From an uncultured Gammaproteobacteria bacterium (GTDB taxonomy: Bacteria > Patescibacteriota > Microgenomatia > Daviesbacterales > UBA10151): a stretch of 64,000 bases of DNA. Every line of letters begins with the position of its first letter. Position 1 is the first letter of the stretch. The stretch is from contig CAYMIA010000001.1 of the NCBI GenBank assembly GCA_964390595.1, positions 59,981 to 123,980 of the forward strand. The letters run 5' to 3'. The notes beneath the pieces are model-generated. The model saw only the letters and a list, made by a program, of their open reading frames with translations. It was not told the DNA's origin and did not search any database. Shown piece after piece: positions 48,863 through 54,649 of this stretch. The position numbers and the translations under genes are program-made.

Positions 48863-49327
48863 ATGGATCCAGATGATACAGATGTGACAGACGGCGAGTT
48901 AGTTTCTACTCCAGCTACAACTCAGGTGAGTGGGGGAGAGATTTTAATGAATATGGAGGGGCTGATTAAAAATTATATCGCCTCGATTGATAAGCTGCAG
49001 GAAGAATCTAAAAAGTTAAAGGAGATGTTGGATGATATCTTTAATAATGACCCAACTTTTAAGCAACACTCAGATGAGGCTAAAGAAGCAGCTAAAAAGA
49101 AACAAACGACCAAGAGTGAGATATTAAAGCGTCCACAAGCGGCTGAACTTAATGAAAAAGTTAAATCAATGAAGTCTCAGGTTAGCGAACAACAAACATC
49201 GCTATCTGATTATTTGCAGCAATATGCTCAAATGGCGGGGGTAAATGAGATTGAAGATGATTCAGGAACTGTTAGAGAGATCGTTTATACTGCCAAATTG
49301 GTCAGAAAAAGTGATTTTAGGCCTTAA
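48863..49327 (+). CDS. hypothetical protein (charged, coiled-coil-like)
   Basis: 154-aa ORF. No motif recognised. Confidence 0.4.
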   Translation: MDPDDTDVTDGELVSTPATTQVSGGEILMNMEGLIKNYIASIDKLQEESKKLKEMLDDIFNNDPTFKQHSDEAKEAAKKKQTTKSEILKRPQAAELNEKVKSMKSQVSEQQTSLSDYLQQYAQMAGVNEIEDDSGTVREIVYTAKLVRKSDFRP

Positions 49328-49971
49328 AGTTCAGAGATCTCTGAAGTTAAATTTACTCCATCAAAGATTAATTTAAATTCCACTGGTTTGGTTTTGTTAT
49401 TGGTAATATACAAATTTTGATTCGCACTGGCGCTTGGGTTGCCAGGGTTATCAAATATAGCTACACCATATTCTCTAGGAACTTGGGGGATAACTGCGAA
49501 GTTGTGGTTGGTGGGAGCTATGGCGATTAGATTGGCGTCTTTGGCTGACCAATAAATTAATGAGGCTAAATGACAAACACCATCACCCATTAAGTAACCA
49601 TCGGATTTAAATCCCTCAAGGCCATTAAAGTGCGCGGTAGTAGTTCGGGCTATTTTGCCTTTAAATTCTGGGTAAACATCTTCATGGAAGGCGAAGACTT
49701 CATTAGGTTGTAGTACAAAGCTATAGGTTGCAGATTTTCTAACTTCTTCCCAGTTGGGAGTTCTGGTTTTGGGAAGTCCATTAAGATAGTTAGCGGTCAG
49801 TAAAATGTTATCTTTAAAAACATCACTAACTGATTTAACAGGATAGCGGTTATCTAAAGAGATCGTGTGTGAGGCTAAAACCTGAGGTTGATGGGTAGGC
49901 ATTAGGCTTCCAAAGGTAGTTACCTGGAACATAGATAAGGTTGCGAATGTGATTAAAGCAGGTATTATCAT
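49324..49971 (-). CDS. VanW-like domain protein
   Basis: 215 aa with an N-terminal TM/signal. GDGVCHLASLIYWSA resembles the VanW core GGGVCQ(V)STTLY motif. Confidence 0.5.
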   Translation of the reverse strand: MIIPALITFATLSMFQVTTFGSLMPTHQPQVLASHTISLDNRYPVKSVSDVFKDNILLTANYLNGLPKTRTPNWEEVRKSATYSFVLQPNEVFAFHEDVYPEFKGKIARTTTAHFNGLEGFKSDGYLMGDGVCHLASLIYWSAKDANLIAIAPTNHNFAVIPQVPREYGVAIFDNPGNPSASANQNLYITNNKTKPVEFKLIFDGVNLTSEISEL

Positions 49972-50041
49972 AGTATTAAAAAAGCCTCCTTTTGGGAGAC
50001 CATTGCTTGGTATTATAGCATACTATGGGATTAGAAGCAAA

Positions 50042-50809
50042 TTATGGAGAAGGAGGACTTAGGGTAAGGGCAGCTTCTTGCAATGTAAGAAACCAATCCT
50101 GAAGCGACTGATCAATTTTATCTCCAGTTAGCCTAAACATTGCTTCCTGATCGGTCACCCGAAAAGAAAATATCTCGTTATTAAAACCAGCCCTGGGATA
50201 TTCCCATCTGGCTAGCATCGGTTTGTAGCCTGCATTAAGCATGACTTCCAGAGTATTTCTTCTAAAAGCATTGAGCGTGGTGGGCTCAGGATATTGTTCT
50301 CCCCAAACTAGTCCTACCAGGTGGGCTCGTGGCCCCTTTAGATCAATTTCCATGAGCATTTGCCTTAGAGCTGCATCTCGTAGGCTAGCATAGCCGGTAG
50401 GCCATCTATCTGATTCTTCTACTAAAGCAAAATTATTCTCATAGCCAGAATTGATCATTCGCGAGACTTTAAATGGCTTGATCCGTCTCCGAAAACAGGT
50501 AACAACATATTGCATTAGCTCATCTTCTGAATGATTTTGATTAGGATCGGGCCAAGCTAGTCCGTCAGCAAGAAATTGGACTCCGCCACTGTCTGGCATA
50601 ATGAGTCTCTTTCCAGGCGTGTGTTTATGGCTGATGGCTTGAACGAAGAGTTCAGTGGCTTTATCAGGAGAGACAGTCAGTTCAAAGATATCTTTTTCTG
50701 GCATAGACCTTTTATATATCCTTATAAGCTGGTTGTCAAGGGCTCTTTCTTTCAATTCAACCTCTAGTTTGTTAAAATTATCATCACATTGCGGGGACCA
50801 GCCTCGCAT
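50042..50809 (-). CDS. hypothetical protein (compositionally richer than surroundings)
   Basis: 255-aa ORF, W/R/P-rich. A sampled stretch is about 43% GC. It directly abuts the tRNA-Gln/GIY-YIG mosaic. Confidence 0.45.
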   Translation of the reverse strand: MRGWSPQCDDNFNKLEVELKERALDNQLIRIYKRSMPEKDIFELTVSPDKATELFVQAISHKHTPGKRLIMPDSGGVQFLADGLAWPDPNQNHSEDELMQYVVTCFRRRIKPFKVSRMINSGYENNFALVEESDRWPTGYASLRDAALRQMLMEIDLKGPRAHLVGLVWGEQYPEPTTLNAFRRNTLEVMLNAGYKPMLARWEYPRAGFNNEIFSFRVTDQEAMFRLTGDKIDQSLQDWFLTLQEAALTLSPPSP

Positions 50810-50820
50810 AGCTTAGCTAG

Positions 50821-50848
50821 GCGGGTCGTTAGCAACGGTAGGATAGCG
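50821..50848 (+). repeat. degenerate copy of tRNA-Gln 5' half (acceptor + D arm)
   Basis: GCGGGTCGTTAGCAACGGTAGGATAGCG aligns with the 5' portion of the intact tRNA-Gln 200 nt downstream (GCGGGATCGTTCAACGGTAGGACAGTAG) at about 80% identity. Confidence 0.4.
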
Positions 50849-50850
50849 AA

Positions 50851-51000
50851 ATGAAATACGTGGTATATGTCTTGTTAAGTAAGGTTAATGAAAAAAGTTA
50901 TGTGGGACTGACAAATAATTTAGAAAGAAGATTAGTGGAACATAATACAGGTAGAAGCTACTATACTAAGAGATATATGCCTTGGGAAGAAGATTTTTAA
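50851..51000 (+). pseudogene. GIY-YIG nuclease-family gene, C-terminally truncated (49 aa)
   Basis: Translation MKYVVYVLLSKVNEKSYVGLTNNLERRLVEHNTGRSYYTKRYMPWEEDF* carries the GIY...YVG and R-x-x-EHN-G core of small GIY-YIG (YhbQ-like) nucleases. It stops where full-length members continue. It is not in the supplied ORF track because it is under 60 aa. Confidence 0.6.
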
Positions 51001-51019
51001 AGAGTTTTTTAACTTAAAT

Positions 51020-51090
51020 TGCGGGATCGTTCAACGGTAGGACAGTAGACTTTGGATCTGCTTATCATGGTTCGAATCCATGTCCCGCAG
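51020..51090 (+). tRNA. tRNA-Gln (anticodon UUG)
   Basis: Acceptor TGCGGGA/TCCCGCA with U1-A72. D-arm GTTC-AACGGTA-GGAC. Anticodon stem GTAGA/TCTGC with loop CTTTGGA (anticodon TTG). T-arm CATGG-TTCGAAT-CCATG is perfect. Discriminator G, as in bacterial tRNA-Gln. Confidence 0.7.
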
Positions 51091-51202
51091 CTCGGTTTGA
51101 AAACTTGCCCTTGCGGTAAGTTTCTCAAAGCGATCTGGGACTGGGGATTCTAACTCGCGTCATCTCCACCAAGCGGGTTCGGCTATCCGCTAGTCAGCGG
51201 AT

Positions 51203-51221
51203 TGGGTGTATTATCCATGTC
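51203..51221 (+). repeat. 19-bp direct repeat TGGGTGTATTATCCATGTC (copy 1; overlaps a duplicate of the tRNA-Gln 3' end)
   Basis: Exact 19-mer found again at 52265..52283. Copy 1 continues CCGCAGC, which reproduces the tRNA-Gln 3' acceptor. Confidence 0.6.
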
Positions 51222-51282
51222 CCGCAGCACTAGGGAAAAGGCTTTCACAAAGCCATTATCAATCTTTGACCGTTCCCCCCGG

Positions 51283-51801
51283 TCACTTTTGTGTCTTACC
51301 TAAAATATCAAAACGGATAATGCCAACCAGCACAGACGTTAAGATAAATAGTTCTGTTAGCATACCCGCGTATGATCCGACGATAAAGTTATAGAAAAAC
51401 CATAATGGTCTTGGAATGAGCATAATAAAGCGAATCGTTTTCGGATTCTTTTGCCAGACTGCAATCGCTCCAAATATTTGGGCAATAATAGGAAGGAAAT
51501 CAGTGGTAGTTTTTGCCGTAAACAAACCAACAGCAATATAACATGCAATAAAAATATATGGCCAGAATTTTTGTTTTGCCCATTTTTCTGTTTCTTTTTT
51601 ATAAGAAACAAAGACTACACAAACTTCAATTAAATTCATTAGGGCGCCAATCCATGCCTTAAGTAAGCTGTAATGAACGACAAACAGCAGCAGTCCGACG
51701 AACATGAGGAGGAGAATGGTAACCCGTTTTTTCTTCTGAAATGAGAGAATGACAAAAATAAGTGCTAAAAAACCTATTCCTTGAATAAGTAATTGATTCA
51801 T
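51283..51801 (-). CDS. YgjV-like inner-membrane protein
   Basis: 172 aa with 5-6 TM segments. The size and pattern resemble YgjV-family proteins. Weak. Confidence 0.4.
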   Translation of the reverse strand: MNQLLIQGIGFLALIFVILSFQKKKRVTILLLMFVGLLLFVVHYSLLKAWIGALMNLIEVCVVFVSYKKETEKWAKQKFWPYIFIACYIAVGLFTAKTTTDFLPIIAQIFGAIAVWQKNPKTIRFIMLIPRPLWFFYNFIVGSYAGMLTELFILTSVLVGIIRFDILGKTQK

Positions 51802-51991
51802 GAATTTATTATAGCAACAATATTTATCTAAATGGTTTTATTTTAGACAGTCGTATAATAAGTTCCGACATAGTCAACTAGTGCCAGCCCTTCGACTGTG
51901 CTCAGGGCCATGGCCATGAATTCAAATGGCCATAACTGACTAGGATAGCCTTGGAGGGAGAAGGTCTTGAGCGAGTCAAACGAGTCGAAAG

Positions 51992-52260
51992 ATGTATTAT
52001 TTTTATATCCTACGTTGTTCAGATAACTCTCTTTATTGTGGAATGACTTCAAATTTAGATAAAAGAATTAAGGAGCATAATTCAGGTACTGCAAGGGTGC
52101 AAAATATTTGCGAGCTAAGAAACCTGTCCATTTAGTTCACCAGGAGATTTATCCTAATATAAAAACTGCAATGAATAGGGAGTTGCAGGTAAAAAAATGG
52201 ACAAAAGCTAAAAAGGAATCTTTGATTAGTGGTGATTTAGAATTATTAAAGAAACTTTAA
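51992..52260 (+). pseudogene. GIY-YIG nuclease-family gene, full-length but frameshifted (-1 near 52085-52095)
   Basis: Frame A reads MYYFYILRCSDNSLYCGMTSNLDKRIKEHNSGT...* and stops at 52133. The -1 frame continues CKGAKYLRAKKPVHLVHQEIYPNIKTAMNRELQVKKWTKAKKESLISGDLELLKKL*, which matches the C-terminal half of YhbQ-like GIY-YIG proteins. Confidence 0.6.
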
Positions 52261-52264
52261 GAAA

Positions 52265-52283
52265 TGGGTGTATTATCCATGTC
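52265..52283 (+). repeat. 19-bp direct repeat TGGGTGTATTATCCATGTC (copy 2)
   Basis: Exact match to 51203..51221. It lies immediately after the stop of the second GIY-YIG gene. Confidence 0.6.
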
Positions 52284-52596
52284 TACCACGAAGTGACAAG
52301 CTTTGCTTATTGAGCACATATTGTACAGAAGAGCTGATTGGTTTATCTGTTCGGTGAATACAGCCAAGCCAACAACAAGGCCGGCGCATCCCTTCTTTAA
52401 GTTCGATGAGGACTCTTTCAACATGCTGCTTTCTGGTTTCCTGCTTTTTAACGAAGGTCGCCCAGCAGATCCATTCATTGCGCGCAAGTGGGGTAAGGCT
52501 TTCCCATGCTGTGAGAGCTTTTGAGTCAGAAGTCAAAGCTTCCCGTAAATCCGCTGGAACTTTGTGCACAGTACCGCTTGAAATATTTTTAGTCAT
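52273..52596 (-). CDS. YdeI/OmpD-associated family protein
   Basis: 107 aa. LREALTSDSKALTAWESLTPLARNEWICWATFVKKQETRKQHVERVLIEL matches the conserved pattern of this family (AW..LTP..R.EWI.W...AK..ETR..R). Confidence 0.55.
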   Translation of the reverse strand: MTKNISSGTVHKVPADLREALTSDSKALTAWESLTPLARNEWICWATFVKKQETRKQHVERVLIELKEGMRRPCCWLGCIHRTDKPISSSVQYVLNKQSLSLRGRHG

Positions 52597-52638
52597 AGGA
52601 TCTTTAGAAGAATTATAACAAATTATCTATATCGCCAA

Positions 52639-53040
52639 CTAGGGTTTTGGTTTGTTCTTATCTTTCTGATTAAGTTCTACTGCATTACGGATGAGGTCTT
52701 TGAAGGCGGTTTTGTTAATCTTGTCTCCCTCGTTAATAACGATGGCGCGGTAACTATTTAGAAGACCTTTTGGGTCTTTGAGAGATGATCCTTTCGCGAA
52801 GGTCAGCCGGAGATGGTTCTTGTAGGTCTCGCCGGTGCAAATCATTCCGTCATGAGACCAGACTGGAATTCCATCAGGATTTGAGGGCTTTTTCCATTTA
52901 ACTTCTTCGGTTCCCTCAGGATCAGCCTGTTTGATTAAAGCGCGAAGCTGTGCTAGTCTTTTGCCACGCCAATCAGTTAACTTCATAATTATGGCATTTA
53001 TCTGTTCATCTACAGACCTGTCTTTTGAGGAAGAATTCAT
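52639..53040 (-). CDS. DUF1801 (YdhG-like) domain protein
   Basis: 133 aa. The MKLTDWRGKRLAQLRALI...VKWKKPS...PVWSHDGMICTGETYKNHLRLTF pattern matches DUF1801. Confidence 0.55.
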   Translation of the reverse strand: MNSSSKDRSVDEQINAIIMKLTDWRGKRLAQLRALIKQADPEGTEEVKWKKPSNPDGIPVWSHDGMICTGETYKNHLRLTFAKGSSLKDPKGLLNSYRAIVINEGDKINKTAFKDLIRNAVELNQKDKNKPKP

Positions 53041-53128
53041 TATAGGTACACTCTACCATATAAAGTTGCTAGCATCTAATTTGACTAGCTGAAACCCATA
53101 TTTACTTGTTAATTTAGGTCATGTATAG

Positions 53129-54649
53129 TTGTGTCAGTTAATCATGACTACCATACAGAGGGTTGATTTCCGCATTGAAAAACTGCAACAATCATTGAAG
53201 TTCTCCCGGGACATTATAGATACTGTCCGTGAACCATTCATAGTACTTGATTCTAAGTTGAGAGTTATGACTGCAAATCCAGCTTTTTACCGCACCTTTA
53301 GAGTTTTAAAAAAAGATACAGAAAAAAAACTCATATACCATTTGGGTGCTAACCAATGGCAGATACCAGAGCTCCGGAAGCTGCTTGAGTCAATTCTTCC
53401 AAAACGTACCACTTTTAAAAATTTTGAAGTTGTGCATAATTTTCCTACCATCGGGCAAAAAATAATGCTTTTAAACGCCCGTAGGATTGACCATGTCGAC
53501 CTCATTTTACTGGCAATTGAAGATGTTACGGAGCGTAGGCAACTGGCAGATAGACTGCACGAAAGTGAGAGACAATTCCGGACATTGATTGAAAAAAGTG
53601 CTGACGCAATTGCACTAGTTAATCCGGAAGGGAAAGTAATTTATGCTAGTCCTTCAACAAAAAATGTCTTAGGTTATTCCGAGAAGGAATTGCAGGGTTT
53701 CACAAATCCATTTGAGCTCGTTCCGCCCGATGATAAAAAAACCGTTACCAAACTATTTGAGGACCTTCTGAAGAAGCCAAGTGGTACAGTCATAGCTGAA
53801 TATCAGGTTAGGCATAAAGGCGGAACACATATCTGGATTGAATCGATTATGACGAACTTGTTACGTGACCCTAATGTCAATGCAATTGTCTTAAATTATA
53901 GGGATATTACCCACCGAAAAGAGCTTGAGAGTCAAAAAGATGACTTTATCGGTATTGCCAGCCATGAGCTAAAAACGCCCGTAACCAGTATTAAAGCATA
54001 TACCCAAATACTCCAAAAACGGTTCGAAAAGCAGGGAGATGAAATAGCAACCCAAAACCTTTCCAAAATGGATGCCCAAATAAACAAATTAAATACTCTT
54101 ATTAGTGATTTGTTAGATGTGACCAAAATTGAGACAGGCAAAATAGTTTTTAATATGCGGTCTTTTGATTTTGATAGCTTGATACGAGAAACAGTGGACG
54201 ATGTAAGACTCACAATTGATAAACATAAGATCTTGGTTAGGGGTAAAACCAGACGGAAAGTTTTTGCAGATAGAGAACGGATTGGATTGGTGCTGGTAAA
54301 CCTTTTGACCAATGCTATTAAGTACTCTCCTAATGCAGTAAGAGTCATTGTCCAACTGTCAGCAGATAAAAGATTGGTTACTGTTGGTGTGCAGGATTTT
54401 GGTATCGGTATTGAAAAAGCCAAACAGGACAAAGTTTTTCAACGCTTCTATCGGGTAACAGGACCTAATGGAAATACTTATCCTGGCCTAGGGCTTGGTT
54501 TGTACATAGCATCTGAGATAATAAAGCGCCATAATGGGAAGATGTGGCTTAAAAGCCAAGCTGGTAAGGGTTCAACCTTTTATTTCTCAATTCCCATCCG
54601 AAAAAAAACAGGGGTACAAAATAAAATAAAAGAAGATATTGAAACATGA
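53129..54649 (+). CDS. PAS-domain sensor histidine kinase (cytoplasmic)
   Basis: 506 aa with two PAS-like segments. H-box ASHELKTPVTSI. HATPase N/G boxes (LVNLLTNAIKYS, GLGLGLYIA). Confidence 0.85.
   Translation: MCQLIMTTIQRVDFRIEKLQQSLKFSRDIIDTVREPFIVLDSKLRVMTANPAFYRTFRVLKKDTEKKLIYHLGANQWQIPELRKLLESILPKRTTFKNFEVVHNFPTIGQKIMLLNARRIDHVDLILLAIEDVTERRQLADRLHESERQFRTLIEKSADAIALVNPEGKVIYASPSTKNVLGYSEKELQGFTNPFELVPPDDKKTVTKLFEDLLKKPSGTVIAEYQVRHKGGTHIWIESIMTNLLRDPNVNAIVLNYRDITHRKELESQKDDFIGIASHELKTPVTSIKAYTQILQKRFEKQGDEIATQNLSKMDAQINKLNTLISDLLDVTKIETGKIVFNMRSFDFDSLIRETVDDVRLTIDKHKILVRGKTRRKVFADRERIGLVLVNLLTNAIKYSPNAVRVIVQLSADKRLVTVGVQDFGIGIEKAKQDKVFQRFYRVTGPNGNTYPGLGLGLYIASEIIKRHNGKMWLKSQAGKGSTFYFSIPIRKKTGVQNKIKEDIET

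Follow-up and report, generated by a model that had tools for sequence, protein, structure and literature searches.

Decayed GIY-YIG nuclease cassettes, probably selfish, nested against a tRNA-Gln gene in a Patescibacteria genome

Introduction

The 64-kb stretch of contig CAYMIA010000001.1 that was analysed here (the window) comes from a Patescibacteria, Microgenomates-like genome with 39.6% G+C, probably Curtissbacteria-like to judge by the best named hits, and contains, on either side of an intact tRNA-Gln(UUG) gene, two defective genes for GIY-YIG nucleases (GIY-A and GIY-B) as well as several partial copies of this very tRNA. This locus is probably what has remained, after decay, of small selfish cassettes which in Patescibacteria take up positions directly beside tRNA genes. 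There is good support for insertion at tRNA genes, and from the comparison of related loci we infer that the nucleases themselves may drive mobility. The core of what an earlier note had proposed from the letters of the window alone, i.e. that a decaying, tRNA-targeting GIY-YIG element had inserted here more than once, is thus supported and favoured by the comparative data.

The cassettes occur in two classes, each with a minimal Slx1/UPF0213-type GIY-YIG gene of 80–90 amino acids (aa) that is co-oriented with the tRNA. In the A class, a partial copy of the tRNA 5′ part is followed by a GC-rich hairpin leader, the nuclease gene, 3–6 nt and the intact tRNA, whereas in the B class the intact tRNA comes first and is followed by a hairpin leader starting from the tRNA 3′ end, the nuclease gene, a few nucleotides and a partial 3′ arm of the tRNA that starts in the T-loop. 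With these layouts, the nuclease gene is therefore bracketed by tRNA direct repeats, while the tRNA is kept intact.

Results

Anatomy of the tRNA-Gln locus

All cassette components in the window are located on the plus strand. The A cassette begins with a leader remnant (50787–50819) and continues with its 5′ arm, a pseudo-tRNA-Gln fragment (50820–50848) that consists of the 5′ strand of the acceptor stem and the D-arm and stops 2 nt short of the ATG of GIY-A (50851–51000). The intact tRNA-Gln(UUG) at 51020–51091, detected by both ARAGORN and Rfam (tRNA, 57 bits), is followed by an insert without an open reading frame (ORF), here termed Z (51092–51202), and by a first copy of the tRNA-Gln 3′ arm (51203–51228), which is composed of the 19-mer TGGGTGTATTATCCATGTC plus CCGCAGC. 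Further downstream, the B cassette comprises its leader (51885–51991), GIY-B (51992–52260) and a right arm, which is a second copy of the 19-mer (52265–52283) located 4 nt past the GIY-B stop. The degenerate tRNA 5′ half, the intact tRNA, the tRNA 3′-end copy embedded with the 19-mer and the second 19-mer behind GIY-B had all been seen by the earlier note, and all of them are present, with the two 19-mers being exact copies.

These arms clearly stand out from the background. In local alignment to tRNA-Gln, the 5′ fragment reaches a score of 17, with the maximum among 3128 control windows being 15 (mean 7.4, s.d. 1.5). The 19-mer is found exactly twice in the 64 kb (at 51203 and 52265), and chance would produce no such copy even with three mismatches allowed. 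Moreover, the last 16 nt of tRNA-Gln are repeated with 100% identity at 51213–51228, and tRNA-Gln is the only one of the seven tRNAs in the window with a terminal duplication. The 19-mer can be read as a T-arm with a mutated loop (TGGGTGTATTATCCATG versus CATGGTTCGAATCCATG in the tRNA); it is a degenerate tRNA T-arm that acts as the 3′ arm of the B cassette, and not an independent element terminus. A history of tandem duplication for the two 19-mers was rejected, because their flanks have nothing in common beyond the 19 nt.

Insert Z begins with a hairpin and has a stable predicted RNA fold (z=−3.7). It shows weak partial similarity (TGG..CT.GGGATTCTAAC) to an insert at the same place in locus L120, and the succession of tRNA, ORF-less insert and 3′ arm is also seen in L006, L069 and L100. 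The end of Z together with the 3′ arm (51172–51228) can be drawn as a tRNA-like mini-structure lacking a D-arm (GCGGG.., the hairpin ATCCGC-TAGTCA-GCGGAT, a degenerate T-arm and ..CCCGC); RNAfold, by contrast, predicts pairing of GCGGAUUGGGUG with the arm, and Rfam does not call this stretch a tRNA.

Identity and decay of the two nuclease genes

GIY-A, annotated in the earlier note as a truncated ORF of 49 aa, indeed matches the first half of the Pfam GIY-YIG domain (PF01541; E=6.3e-11, profile positions 1–44 of 78 only). Its closest full-length relative, P0121, is an 81-aa protein with 70% identity, and about 32 C-terminal codons are absent from GIY-A, a loss that takes in the region of the catalytic Glu. 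GIY-B is preserved over its full length, but in two ORF pieces in different frames (51992–52135 and 52108–52260; Pfam E=4.8e-11 and 1.7e-4), which correspond to the first and second halves of the domain and jointly span profile positions 1–76 of 78. Restoring a single G in the GGG run at 52095–52097, i.e. reverting a GGGG to GGG deletion, generates an 89-aa GIY-B, which aligns without gaps and from end to end with many homologues of 89 aa at approximately 82% identity.

Whether this −1 frameshift, placed near 52090 by the earlier note, is real was checked in independent per-run assemblies of three sequencing runs that span the locus. The Logan assembly of SRR9179562 is identical to the window over 51223–53397, frameshift included, and that of SRR9179560 carries a further 1-nt deletion at 52093–52094. 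Because one independent assembly repeats the frameshift and another has a second indel, GIY-B is a genuine pseudogene and not an assembly artefact, with indels building up in the population. Inactivation of both nucleases, GIY-A by truncation and GIY-B by frameshift, had also been proposed, and an intact, expressible gene for either of them is indeed not present; there are no further GIY-YIG copies in the window. Frame damage was also observed elsewhere: in L037 (3734–4003) a GIY-B gene has a frameshift in a run of A residues close to the 3′ end, and in L057 (865–1069) a GIY-A-type gene is split across two frames.

In one respect the earlier note has to be corrected. It had regarded the two nuclease genes as copies of one element, but GIY-A and GIY-B share only 34% identity and fall into two positional classes; they are members of different subfamilies with fixed positions, A on the 5′ side and B on the 3′ side of the tRNA. 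Repaired GIY-B matches the UPF0213-family structures 1zg2_A (E=1e-15) and 1ywl_A (E=7.5e-14) over residues 2–80, all residues that are invariant among its homologues are present, and size and single-domain organization are those of this family. By sequence, GIY-B thus belongs to the UPF0213/YhbQ/YazA family, i.e. it represents the prokaryotic Slx1-like minimal GIY-YIG domain.

Recurrence of the cassettes at other tRNA genes

About 130 related loci served for comparison. In 15 of 80 loci with GIY-B relatives, which were drawn from species-representative genomes, the 3′ end of a tRNA or of transfer-messenger RNA (tmRNA) lies on the same strand no more than 210 nt upstream, with 0.38 such cases expected from the tRNA density in the remainder of the same loci (P ~3e-19). 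tRNA-Gln genes, with both anticodons, make up 27 of the 40 tRNAs in these loci, and those for Lys, Ser, Arg and Pro as well as tmRNA are also found directly upstream of GIY-B; when all cassettes are considered, tRNA-Phe and tRNA-Gly have to be added to this list. The GIY genes are co-oriented with the tRNA, several GIY paralogues can occur on one contig (L006, L022, L059 and L105), and no conservation was found among the flanking protein genes at the 80 loci. Eleven distant relatives on viral contigs, used as a control, have no tRNA nearby.

GIY-A normally ends 3–6 nt ahead of the tRNA and has a copy of the tRNA 5′ part upstream. The sole close GIY-A homologue obtained in a word-index search (in L086) terminates 6 nt ahead of a sequence resembling the 5′ end of tRNA-Gln, and additional A-type examples came from a tRNA-anchored sample. 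In L093, L114 and L119, which were picked by tRNA sequence alone, a GIY gene ends just before tRNA-Gln, and upstream of this gene the tRNA 5′ part is found once more, broken by GC-rich hairpins; in L093, tRNA-Gln is followed by a B leader. L037 mirrors the window, since it contains pseudo-tRNA-Gln(1–19), a leader, a GIY-A-type gene of 80 aa, 3 nt and tRNA-Gln, and then, after 55 nt, pseudo-tRNA-Gln(21–73), a B leader and a frameshifted GIY-B. A dense array is found on the minus strand of L105 (metagenome JGI24721J44947_10025538, approx. 1700–2880), with a pseudo-tRNA-Phe 5′ half, tRNA-Phe, GIY, pseudo-tRNA-Phe, GIY, tRNA-Gly, GIY and pseudo-tRNA-Gly in this order. Its GIY ORFs begin 0–2 nt past tRNA 3′ ends, and its pseudo-tRNAs have a GC-rich hairpin in place of the D- or anticodon region, similar to what is seen in L114, L119 and L093.

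The repeats are strictly directional. When terminal 14-mers of tRNAs were searched with at most one mismatch in 81 loci, 3′ ends recurred downstream in seven cases and never upstream, whereas 5′ ends recurred upstream in five cases and never downstream; an independent sample yielded three downstream and one upstream repeats, with none in the control directions. Every 3′ arm starts in the T-loop (in the window, L006 (twice), L059 and L069), no matter whether it follows a GIY gene, as at tRNA-Gln of L006 (GIY-B) and at tRNA-Ser of L059 (twice), or an ORF-less insert, as at tRNA-Lys of L006 and tRNA-Glu of L069. The arrangement of a GIY-B stop, a few nucleotides and a 3′ arm of the local tRNA is also present in L006, L059, L105 and L010, where the arm TCCTAGTCCCGCAGC lies 7 nt past the stop. 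On the other side, 5′ arms are found upstream of the GIY-A-type genes of L037, L086, L093, L114 and L119. In L114 and L085, the duplication extends beyond the tRNA 5′ part into 24–26 nt of upstream flank, a clear footprint of insertion, and in L085 and L079 these duplications of flank plus tRNA 5′ part amount to 45 nt. Overall, the duplications range from 12 to ~65 nt, with non-tRNA flank sometimes included. Terminal duplications affect two of the six tRNAs that have an adjacent GIY gene and one of the 62 that do not, and in this lone exception (L120) the 3′ arm is still attached to a B leader without an ORF.

Two side observations concern the tRNA genes as such. In L079 (3856–3977), a copy of the first 35 nt of tRNA-Arg(TCG) lies 10 nt ahead of the intact gene; the 45-nt tandem duplication ends in the anticodon loop, a GIY-B-type gene is located 20 nt downstream, and the duplication could have been left behind by repair or by excision. 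In addition, the tRNA-Gln genes of L006 (3836–3907; Roizmanbacteria, UUG) and L010 (3774–3847; Curtissbacteria, CUG) are identical outside the anticodon arm except for one base in the D-loop, a hint that sequence may be exchanged or converted between isoacceptor genes with the same cassette.

Presence, absence and derivatives without a reading frame

Among 34 metagenome loci chosen solely by the 26-nt core of the window tRNA-Gln, three have a GIY gene on the 5′ side, one on the 3′ side and three a GIY-B gene 2–4 kb downstream, and about 24 have no GIY gene and show ordinary terminators after the tRNA. The earlier note had also considered that the nucleases might be ordinary YhbQ-like housekeeping proteins always encoded next to tRNA-Gln: a UPF0213/YhbQ-like sequence they do have, but tRNA-Gln is not their constant neighbour, with most loci that were picked by tRNA-Gln sequence being devoid of cassettes. 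Absence can also be seen at a homologous target site, since the interval between tRNA-Phe and tRNA-Gly, which contains the GIY genes and pseudo-tRNAs in L105, is a 93-nt spacer in L103, L110 and L118. Sequence identity between L105 and L116 is 99.86% over 2.9 kb, beyond which the two loci are unrelated, with the tRNA/GIY block on the side present in L105 only.

L006 (2590–2696, at tRNA-Lys) and L100 (932–1010, at tRNA-Gln) contain ORF-less mini elements with the common right end GGAATGAAATGACGYAG. In both cases, the arm that follows this end matches the local tRNA, which argues for a duplication derived from the target, and these mini elements look like non-autonomous derivatives of the B cassette. 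Two tandem units after tRNA-Glu were noticed in L069 (2389–2560; Peribacteria): the first one (..ATCACTATCCTGT.TGCC.CTTG.CCTGAGCGA..GAGTCGAAGG) ends with an 18-nt copy of the tRNA 3′ end, directly after which the second one starts, which was read as far as CCTGAGCGAGT. The leader-type motif therefore occurs also outside of Microgenomates.

The leaders and the X motif

The leader between tRNA and GIY-B comprises 60–130 nt from the last bases of the tRNA onwards and has the general form ..CAGC/C(N)TTCGACTC .. GCTCA(NN)GGCYATRGCC .. GAGTCGAA(NN) .. TGAGCGA .. GAGTCGAAGGA .. ATG, with the window version being CAGC/CCTTCGACT..GCTCAGGGCCATGGCC..CTTGAGCGA..GAGTCGAAAG followed by ATG. Homologous leaders start exactly at the tRNA 3′ end in L006, L010, L011, L012, L025, L078 and others, and B leaders are also present behind tRNA-Lys, tRNA-Ser and tmRNA. 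The leader forms a hairpin (z=−3.2 for the window fold), and its P1 helix shows covariation. With helix halves taken by anchors that do not depend on complementarity, 88.8% of the P1 cells are paired across 17 leaders, as compared to 33–47% with a slid partner. The number of compensatory cells is 16 versus 6.0 ± 1.7 after shuffling, with none of 500 shuffles attaining 16, and at position 4/26 the pairs A-U, C-G, G-C and U-G all occur. With an automatic alignment, RNAalifold detected no helix other than the invariant P2, and pairing of leader halves by regular expressions was dropped for its excess noise. The distal strand of the leader overlaps the ribosome-binding sequence GAAGGA. The helix may play its role either in the RNA, i.e. 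in processing or in translational control of the adjacent GAAGGA, or in the DNA.

The A-leader remnant in the window includes the tRNA-5′-end-like TTGCGGGG (50789–50797) and the 12-mer CCAGCCTCGCAT. The same 12-mer in the same layout (CCAGCCTCGCAT...GGCGGGTC..GTAG ATG) precedes the GIY-A homologue of L086, and CATTGCGGGG.CC.GCCT is common to the remnant and the leader of L093.

Directly abutting the B leader in the window is the X motif ATAATAAGTTCCnACATAGTCnACnAGnGCCAGC (51855–51888, plus strand), a 34-nt sequence that ends with GCCAGC and is present in the window once. It recurs in Microgenomates loci, mostly directly after ORF stops (L009 4587–4620 and 5244–5277, L019 4774–4807, L082 6029–6064, L096, L109 and L113), and in L030 it stands directly ahead of a GIY gene, just upstream of 4001. 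That the X motif is a diverged, free-standing tRNA-Gln 3′ arm is speculation. In Rfam scans of 50000–53000 and of six related loci, neither the leader nor Z nor the X motif corresponded to any family.

Neighbouring genes

Pfam domains in the ORFs between 49324 and 53040 are VanW, none, YgjV, OmdA and DUF1801. The ygjV-like gene reported by the earlier note is an intact gene for a YgjV-family membrane protein (51283–51801, minus strand; Imp-YgjV, 6e-38) with its own promoter (the module extends to about 51830) and terminator; back-to-back terminator-like hairpins at 51240–51285 are predicted to stop transcription of ygjV (minus strand) as well as read-through from the tRNA (plus strand). As ygjV is absent from all 80 GIY-B loci and its homologues occur in unrelated contexts without a tRNA, a role as cargo was ruled out: ygjV is a self-contained module that stands between the first 3′ arm and the B cassette without belonging to the element family.

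By contrast, two other neighbours bear the marks of the cassettes. The OmdA/YdeI-family gene (52273–52596, minus strand; Pfam) has lost its native stop, reads six extra codons into the second 19-mer and terminates there, such that the protein ends with ..NKQSLSLRGRHG, whereas a 79%-identical homologue from Curtissbacteria ends with ..NKRSFS. The cassette junction has thus changed the C-terminus of a host protein and marks the right-hand boundary of the cassette. On the left, the called start of a hypothetical 255-aa ORF (50042–50809, minus strand) overlaps the A-leader remnant. Because its first ~8 codons fall into sequence shared by the A-cassette leaders of unrelated loci (L086 and L093), this annotated start is probably wrong or borrowed from the element.

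Discussion

How could such cassettes have come to surround a tRNA gene that is still intact? In the mechanism that we propose, the nuclease would nick or cut the cognate tRNA gene, close to the D-loop or anticodon loop in the A class and close to the T-loop in the B class, and the cassette would then be copied or integrated with its tRNA-derived arms as the sole homology. Insertion based on arm homology alone would not depend on the genomic surroundings and would do no harm to the tRNA, recombination between the arms could lead to clean excision, and after fixation the nuclease gene would decay, as in the window. Here, the tRNA-Gln gene would have gained an A cassette (since truncated), an ORF-less insert bounded by a 3′ arm and a B cassette with its own 3′ arm (since frameshifted); the right-hand junction would have clipped the stop codon of the neighbouring OmdA gene, and the ygjV module would have ended up at or near the tRNA/leader junction. 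Joining the first arm (..TCCCGCAGC) to the leader (CCTTCGACT..) would restore the canonical tRNA/leader junction of L012, and one simple history is therefore that the ygjV module inserted at this junction. Alternatively, a second B cassette with its arm may have landed after the X motif.

The anatomy, recurrence, directionality and presence/absence of the cassettes as well as the covariation of their leaders and their pseudogenization are direct observations, and it is on comparative anatomy that the reading of mobility is based. Several observations weigh against selfish, nuclease-driven cassettes. More than half of the GIY-B loci have no tRNA within 4 kb, and a detectable 3′ arm is absent from most GIY-B genes that do lie next to a tRNA. 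In the window, the mutated T-loop shared by both arms and the entry of ygjV leave more than one order of events conceivable. The variation in presence that the earlier note had called for is there among related loci; within the window's own species, no empty site was found, the Logan assemblies having yielded this species only. Empty sites in close relatives were also sought by scanning metagenomes with the 255-aa neighbour, again with no result. The proteins contain no DNA-binding domain, with intact homologues having just 81–89 aa, and they stay far below the cut-off of the group-I-intron endonuclease model NCBIfam TIGR01453 (16.2 and 22.7 bits against a cut-off of 56). Finally, GIY-B is 60–83% identical across Microgenomates behind a conserved and covarying leader, which would fit a useful host gene as well, and Slx1-like proteins of prokaryotes are regarded as vertically inherited housekeeping genes (PMC1564403).

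These last points lead to the main rival explanation, which assumes that UPF0213 proteins are of use to the host in DNA repair or in tRNA/RNA metabolism and that their genes share a transcript with tRNA-Gln. In this case, the hairpin leader would be a processing or translation-control element, the tRNA fragments would be by-products of local duplication and decay, and the window would merely record the loss of two dispensable genes. Such a host operon would account for the strict co-orientation with the tRNA, for a covarying leader that starts exactly at the tRNA 3′ end and overlaps GAAGGA with its distal strand, and for the high conservation of a family that is deemed to be vertically inherited; a fusion to the tRNA methyltransferase TrmH was the sole link to RNA noted in the 2006 survey of the GIY-YIG superfamily (PMC1564403). 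It does not, however, account for the arms, which occur on the outward sides only and abut the cassette ends, for the duplicated upstream flank in L114 and L085, or for cassettes beside at least seven different stable-RNA genes. Nor would it lead one to expect the patchy distribution over tRNA-Gln loci, the several paralogues possible on a single contig (L006, L022, L059 and L105), ORF-less derivatives with common ends, frequent pseudogenes and synteny that stops at the tRNA, and we therefore consider a host operon unlikely, though worth keeping in mind.

A different kind of explanation starts from the tRNA fragments themselves, which might be scars left when tRNA-Gln paralogues (CUG and UUG), formerly arranged in tandem, recombined unequally or underwent slippage, with the GIY-YIG genes being incidental. 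Both isoacceptors are indeed found beside GIY-B, the 5′ fragment in the window is closer to CUG-type tRNAs (GGTAGGATAG), L037 has a second, nearly complete tRNA-like copy (30 bits), and the near-identity of the UUG and CUG tRNA-Gln genes of L006 and L010 would fit such a history. Yet this would not explain why the anatomy recurs at Lys, Ser, Glu, Arg, Pro, Phe and Gly tRNAs, why the 3′ arms invariably start in the T-loop, why non-tRNA flank is duplicated in L085 and L114 or why fragments are linked to GIY genes (2/6 versus 1/62 tRNAs), which makes scars of this kind distinctly improbable. Duplication of a tRNA 3′ end from the T-loop onwards is also the classical sublocation of integrase att sites. 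As the repeats are exact, the duplicated tRNA ends could be att sites of deleted tyrosine-integrase islands, with the GIY-YIG genes as leftover cargo. Here, however, no recombinase domain is encoded in the ORFs at 49324–53040, the repeats bracket just 0.1–0.6 kb (121 nt and ~400 nt in the window) with nothing in between except a small leader plus GIY unit or an ORF-less remnant, and neither duplications on the 5′ side nor a duplicated upstream flank would be expected of att sites. We therefore rejected an integrase-type tRNA island for the window and regard integrase footprints in general as a very remote explanation.

If the locus is what remains of selfish cassettes, these are not easily assigned to a known class of element. 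They share with tyrosine-integrase islands a regenerated tRNA and a far end marked by a 3′ direct repeat that starts in the T-loop, but differ not only by their lack of an integrase and their small size but also by a mirror-image 5′-side class and by repeats of variable length (12 to ~65 nt). For an insertion sequence or a miniature inverted-repeat transposable element, this variable length is equally unsuitable, and a transposase is missing, as are terminal inverted repeats at the junctions. A group I intron was rejected, because the Rfam scans detected nothing but tRNAs and the window tRNA is continuous. Membership in an anti-phage defence system or a phage protein family was dismissed as well, with only marginal partial matches to PADLOC models (E 5e-4 or weaker) and no PHROG match for GIY-A and GIY-B.

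The closest parallel may be the Seg nucleases of T-even phages. SegB is a GIY-YIG homing endonuclease in the tRNA gene cluster of phage T4 (PMC2330249), and SegF and SegG promote intronless homing. Similar to the cassettes described here, Seg genes lie between or beside tRNA genes without an intron, they are selfish and expected to spread via break repair with co-conversion of an adjacent conserved gene (PMC2330249), and they show a patchy distribution and decay. Seg proteins, however, have ~200 aa or more and a C-terminal DNA-binding domain, whereas the window family with its 80–90 aa consists of the catalytic domain alone; an I-TevI/Seg-type architecture was therefore rejected, also in view of TIGR01453 remaining below its cut-off. 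Furthermore, Seg proteins belong to phages, whereas the cassettes reside in a cellular Patescibacteria genome, with viral relatives not being linked to tRNAs, and partial tRNA duplications as brackets and a conserved hairpin leader set the cassettes apart. In the Candidate Phyla Radiation, rRNA genes hold GIY-YIG-encoding insertions that belong to neither of the intron groups I and II (Tsurumaki et al. 2024, PMC11270868), i.e. GIY-YIG ORFs occur in insertions into stable-RNA genes of the same radiation. These insertions interrupt the rRNA genes and have to be removed from the transcript, whereas the cassettes flank intact tRNAs; moreover, they were judged to be rare and outside a homing context (PMC11270868). 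The tRNA introns of Patescibacteria are also insertions at tRNA genes of this phylum that are related to mobile elements, but the window tRNA is uninterrupted, with no intron according to Rfam, and the 2026 study of these introns lists HNH, LAGLIDADG and PD-(D/E)XK endonucleases only, with GIY-YIG not being mentioned (PMC13011429). We found no description of the arrangement reported here in the literature on GIY-YIG proteins with tRNA adjacency or on these phyla, of which our coverage was incomplete.

As a broader and decidedly tentative proposal, for which the odds seem rather less than even, the cassettes may represent an integrase-free class of mobile elements in Patescibacteria. Such elements would combine a minimal Slx1-like nuclease with a hairpin leader, would use tRNA-derived direct repeats as their only homology to enter next to tRNA and tmRNA genes (and possibly to leave again by excision), and would exist in mirror-image 5′ and 3′ forms and as ORF-less derivatives. 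With this insertion logic, they could enter beside any conserved RNA gene, leaving the gene unharmed and needing no recombinase. Patescibacteria are known for rRNA and tRNA genes rich in introns and insertions, and the cassettes would add a type of mobile element to these reduced genomes. They would also matter for annotation, where they can lead to missed pseudogenes, false ORF starts (as for the 255-aa ORF), clipped stops (as for OmdA) and contig breaks at tRNA repeats.

The implications for the nuclease family may be more far-reaching. UPF0213/YhbQ-type minimal GIY-YIG proteins, although structures have been solved, have to our knowledge no established function and are treated as housekeeping proteins. 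Members of this family, which has been described as vertically inherited and as a probable repair factor (PMC1564403), occur here in multiple copies, linked to tRNAs, bracketed, patchily distributed and often as pseudogenes. Because of the duplicated arms, the covarying leader, the ORF-less derivatives and the frequent decay, the directional nesting suggests that tRNA gene DNA is the likely substrate and that at least this branch of UPF0213 leads a selfish life. The relic in the window exposes a type of cassette, widespread and seemingly not yet described, that nests at tRNA genes and has a minimal GIY-YIG nuclease at its core, and if the proposal of an integrase-free element is true, this would be the first biological role and the first substrate, i.e. 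tRNA gene DNA, for part of the UPF0213/YhbQ family.

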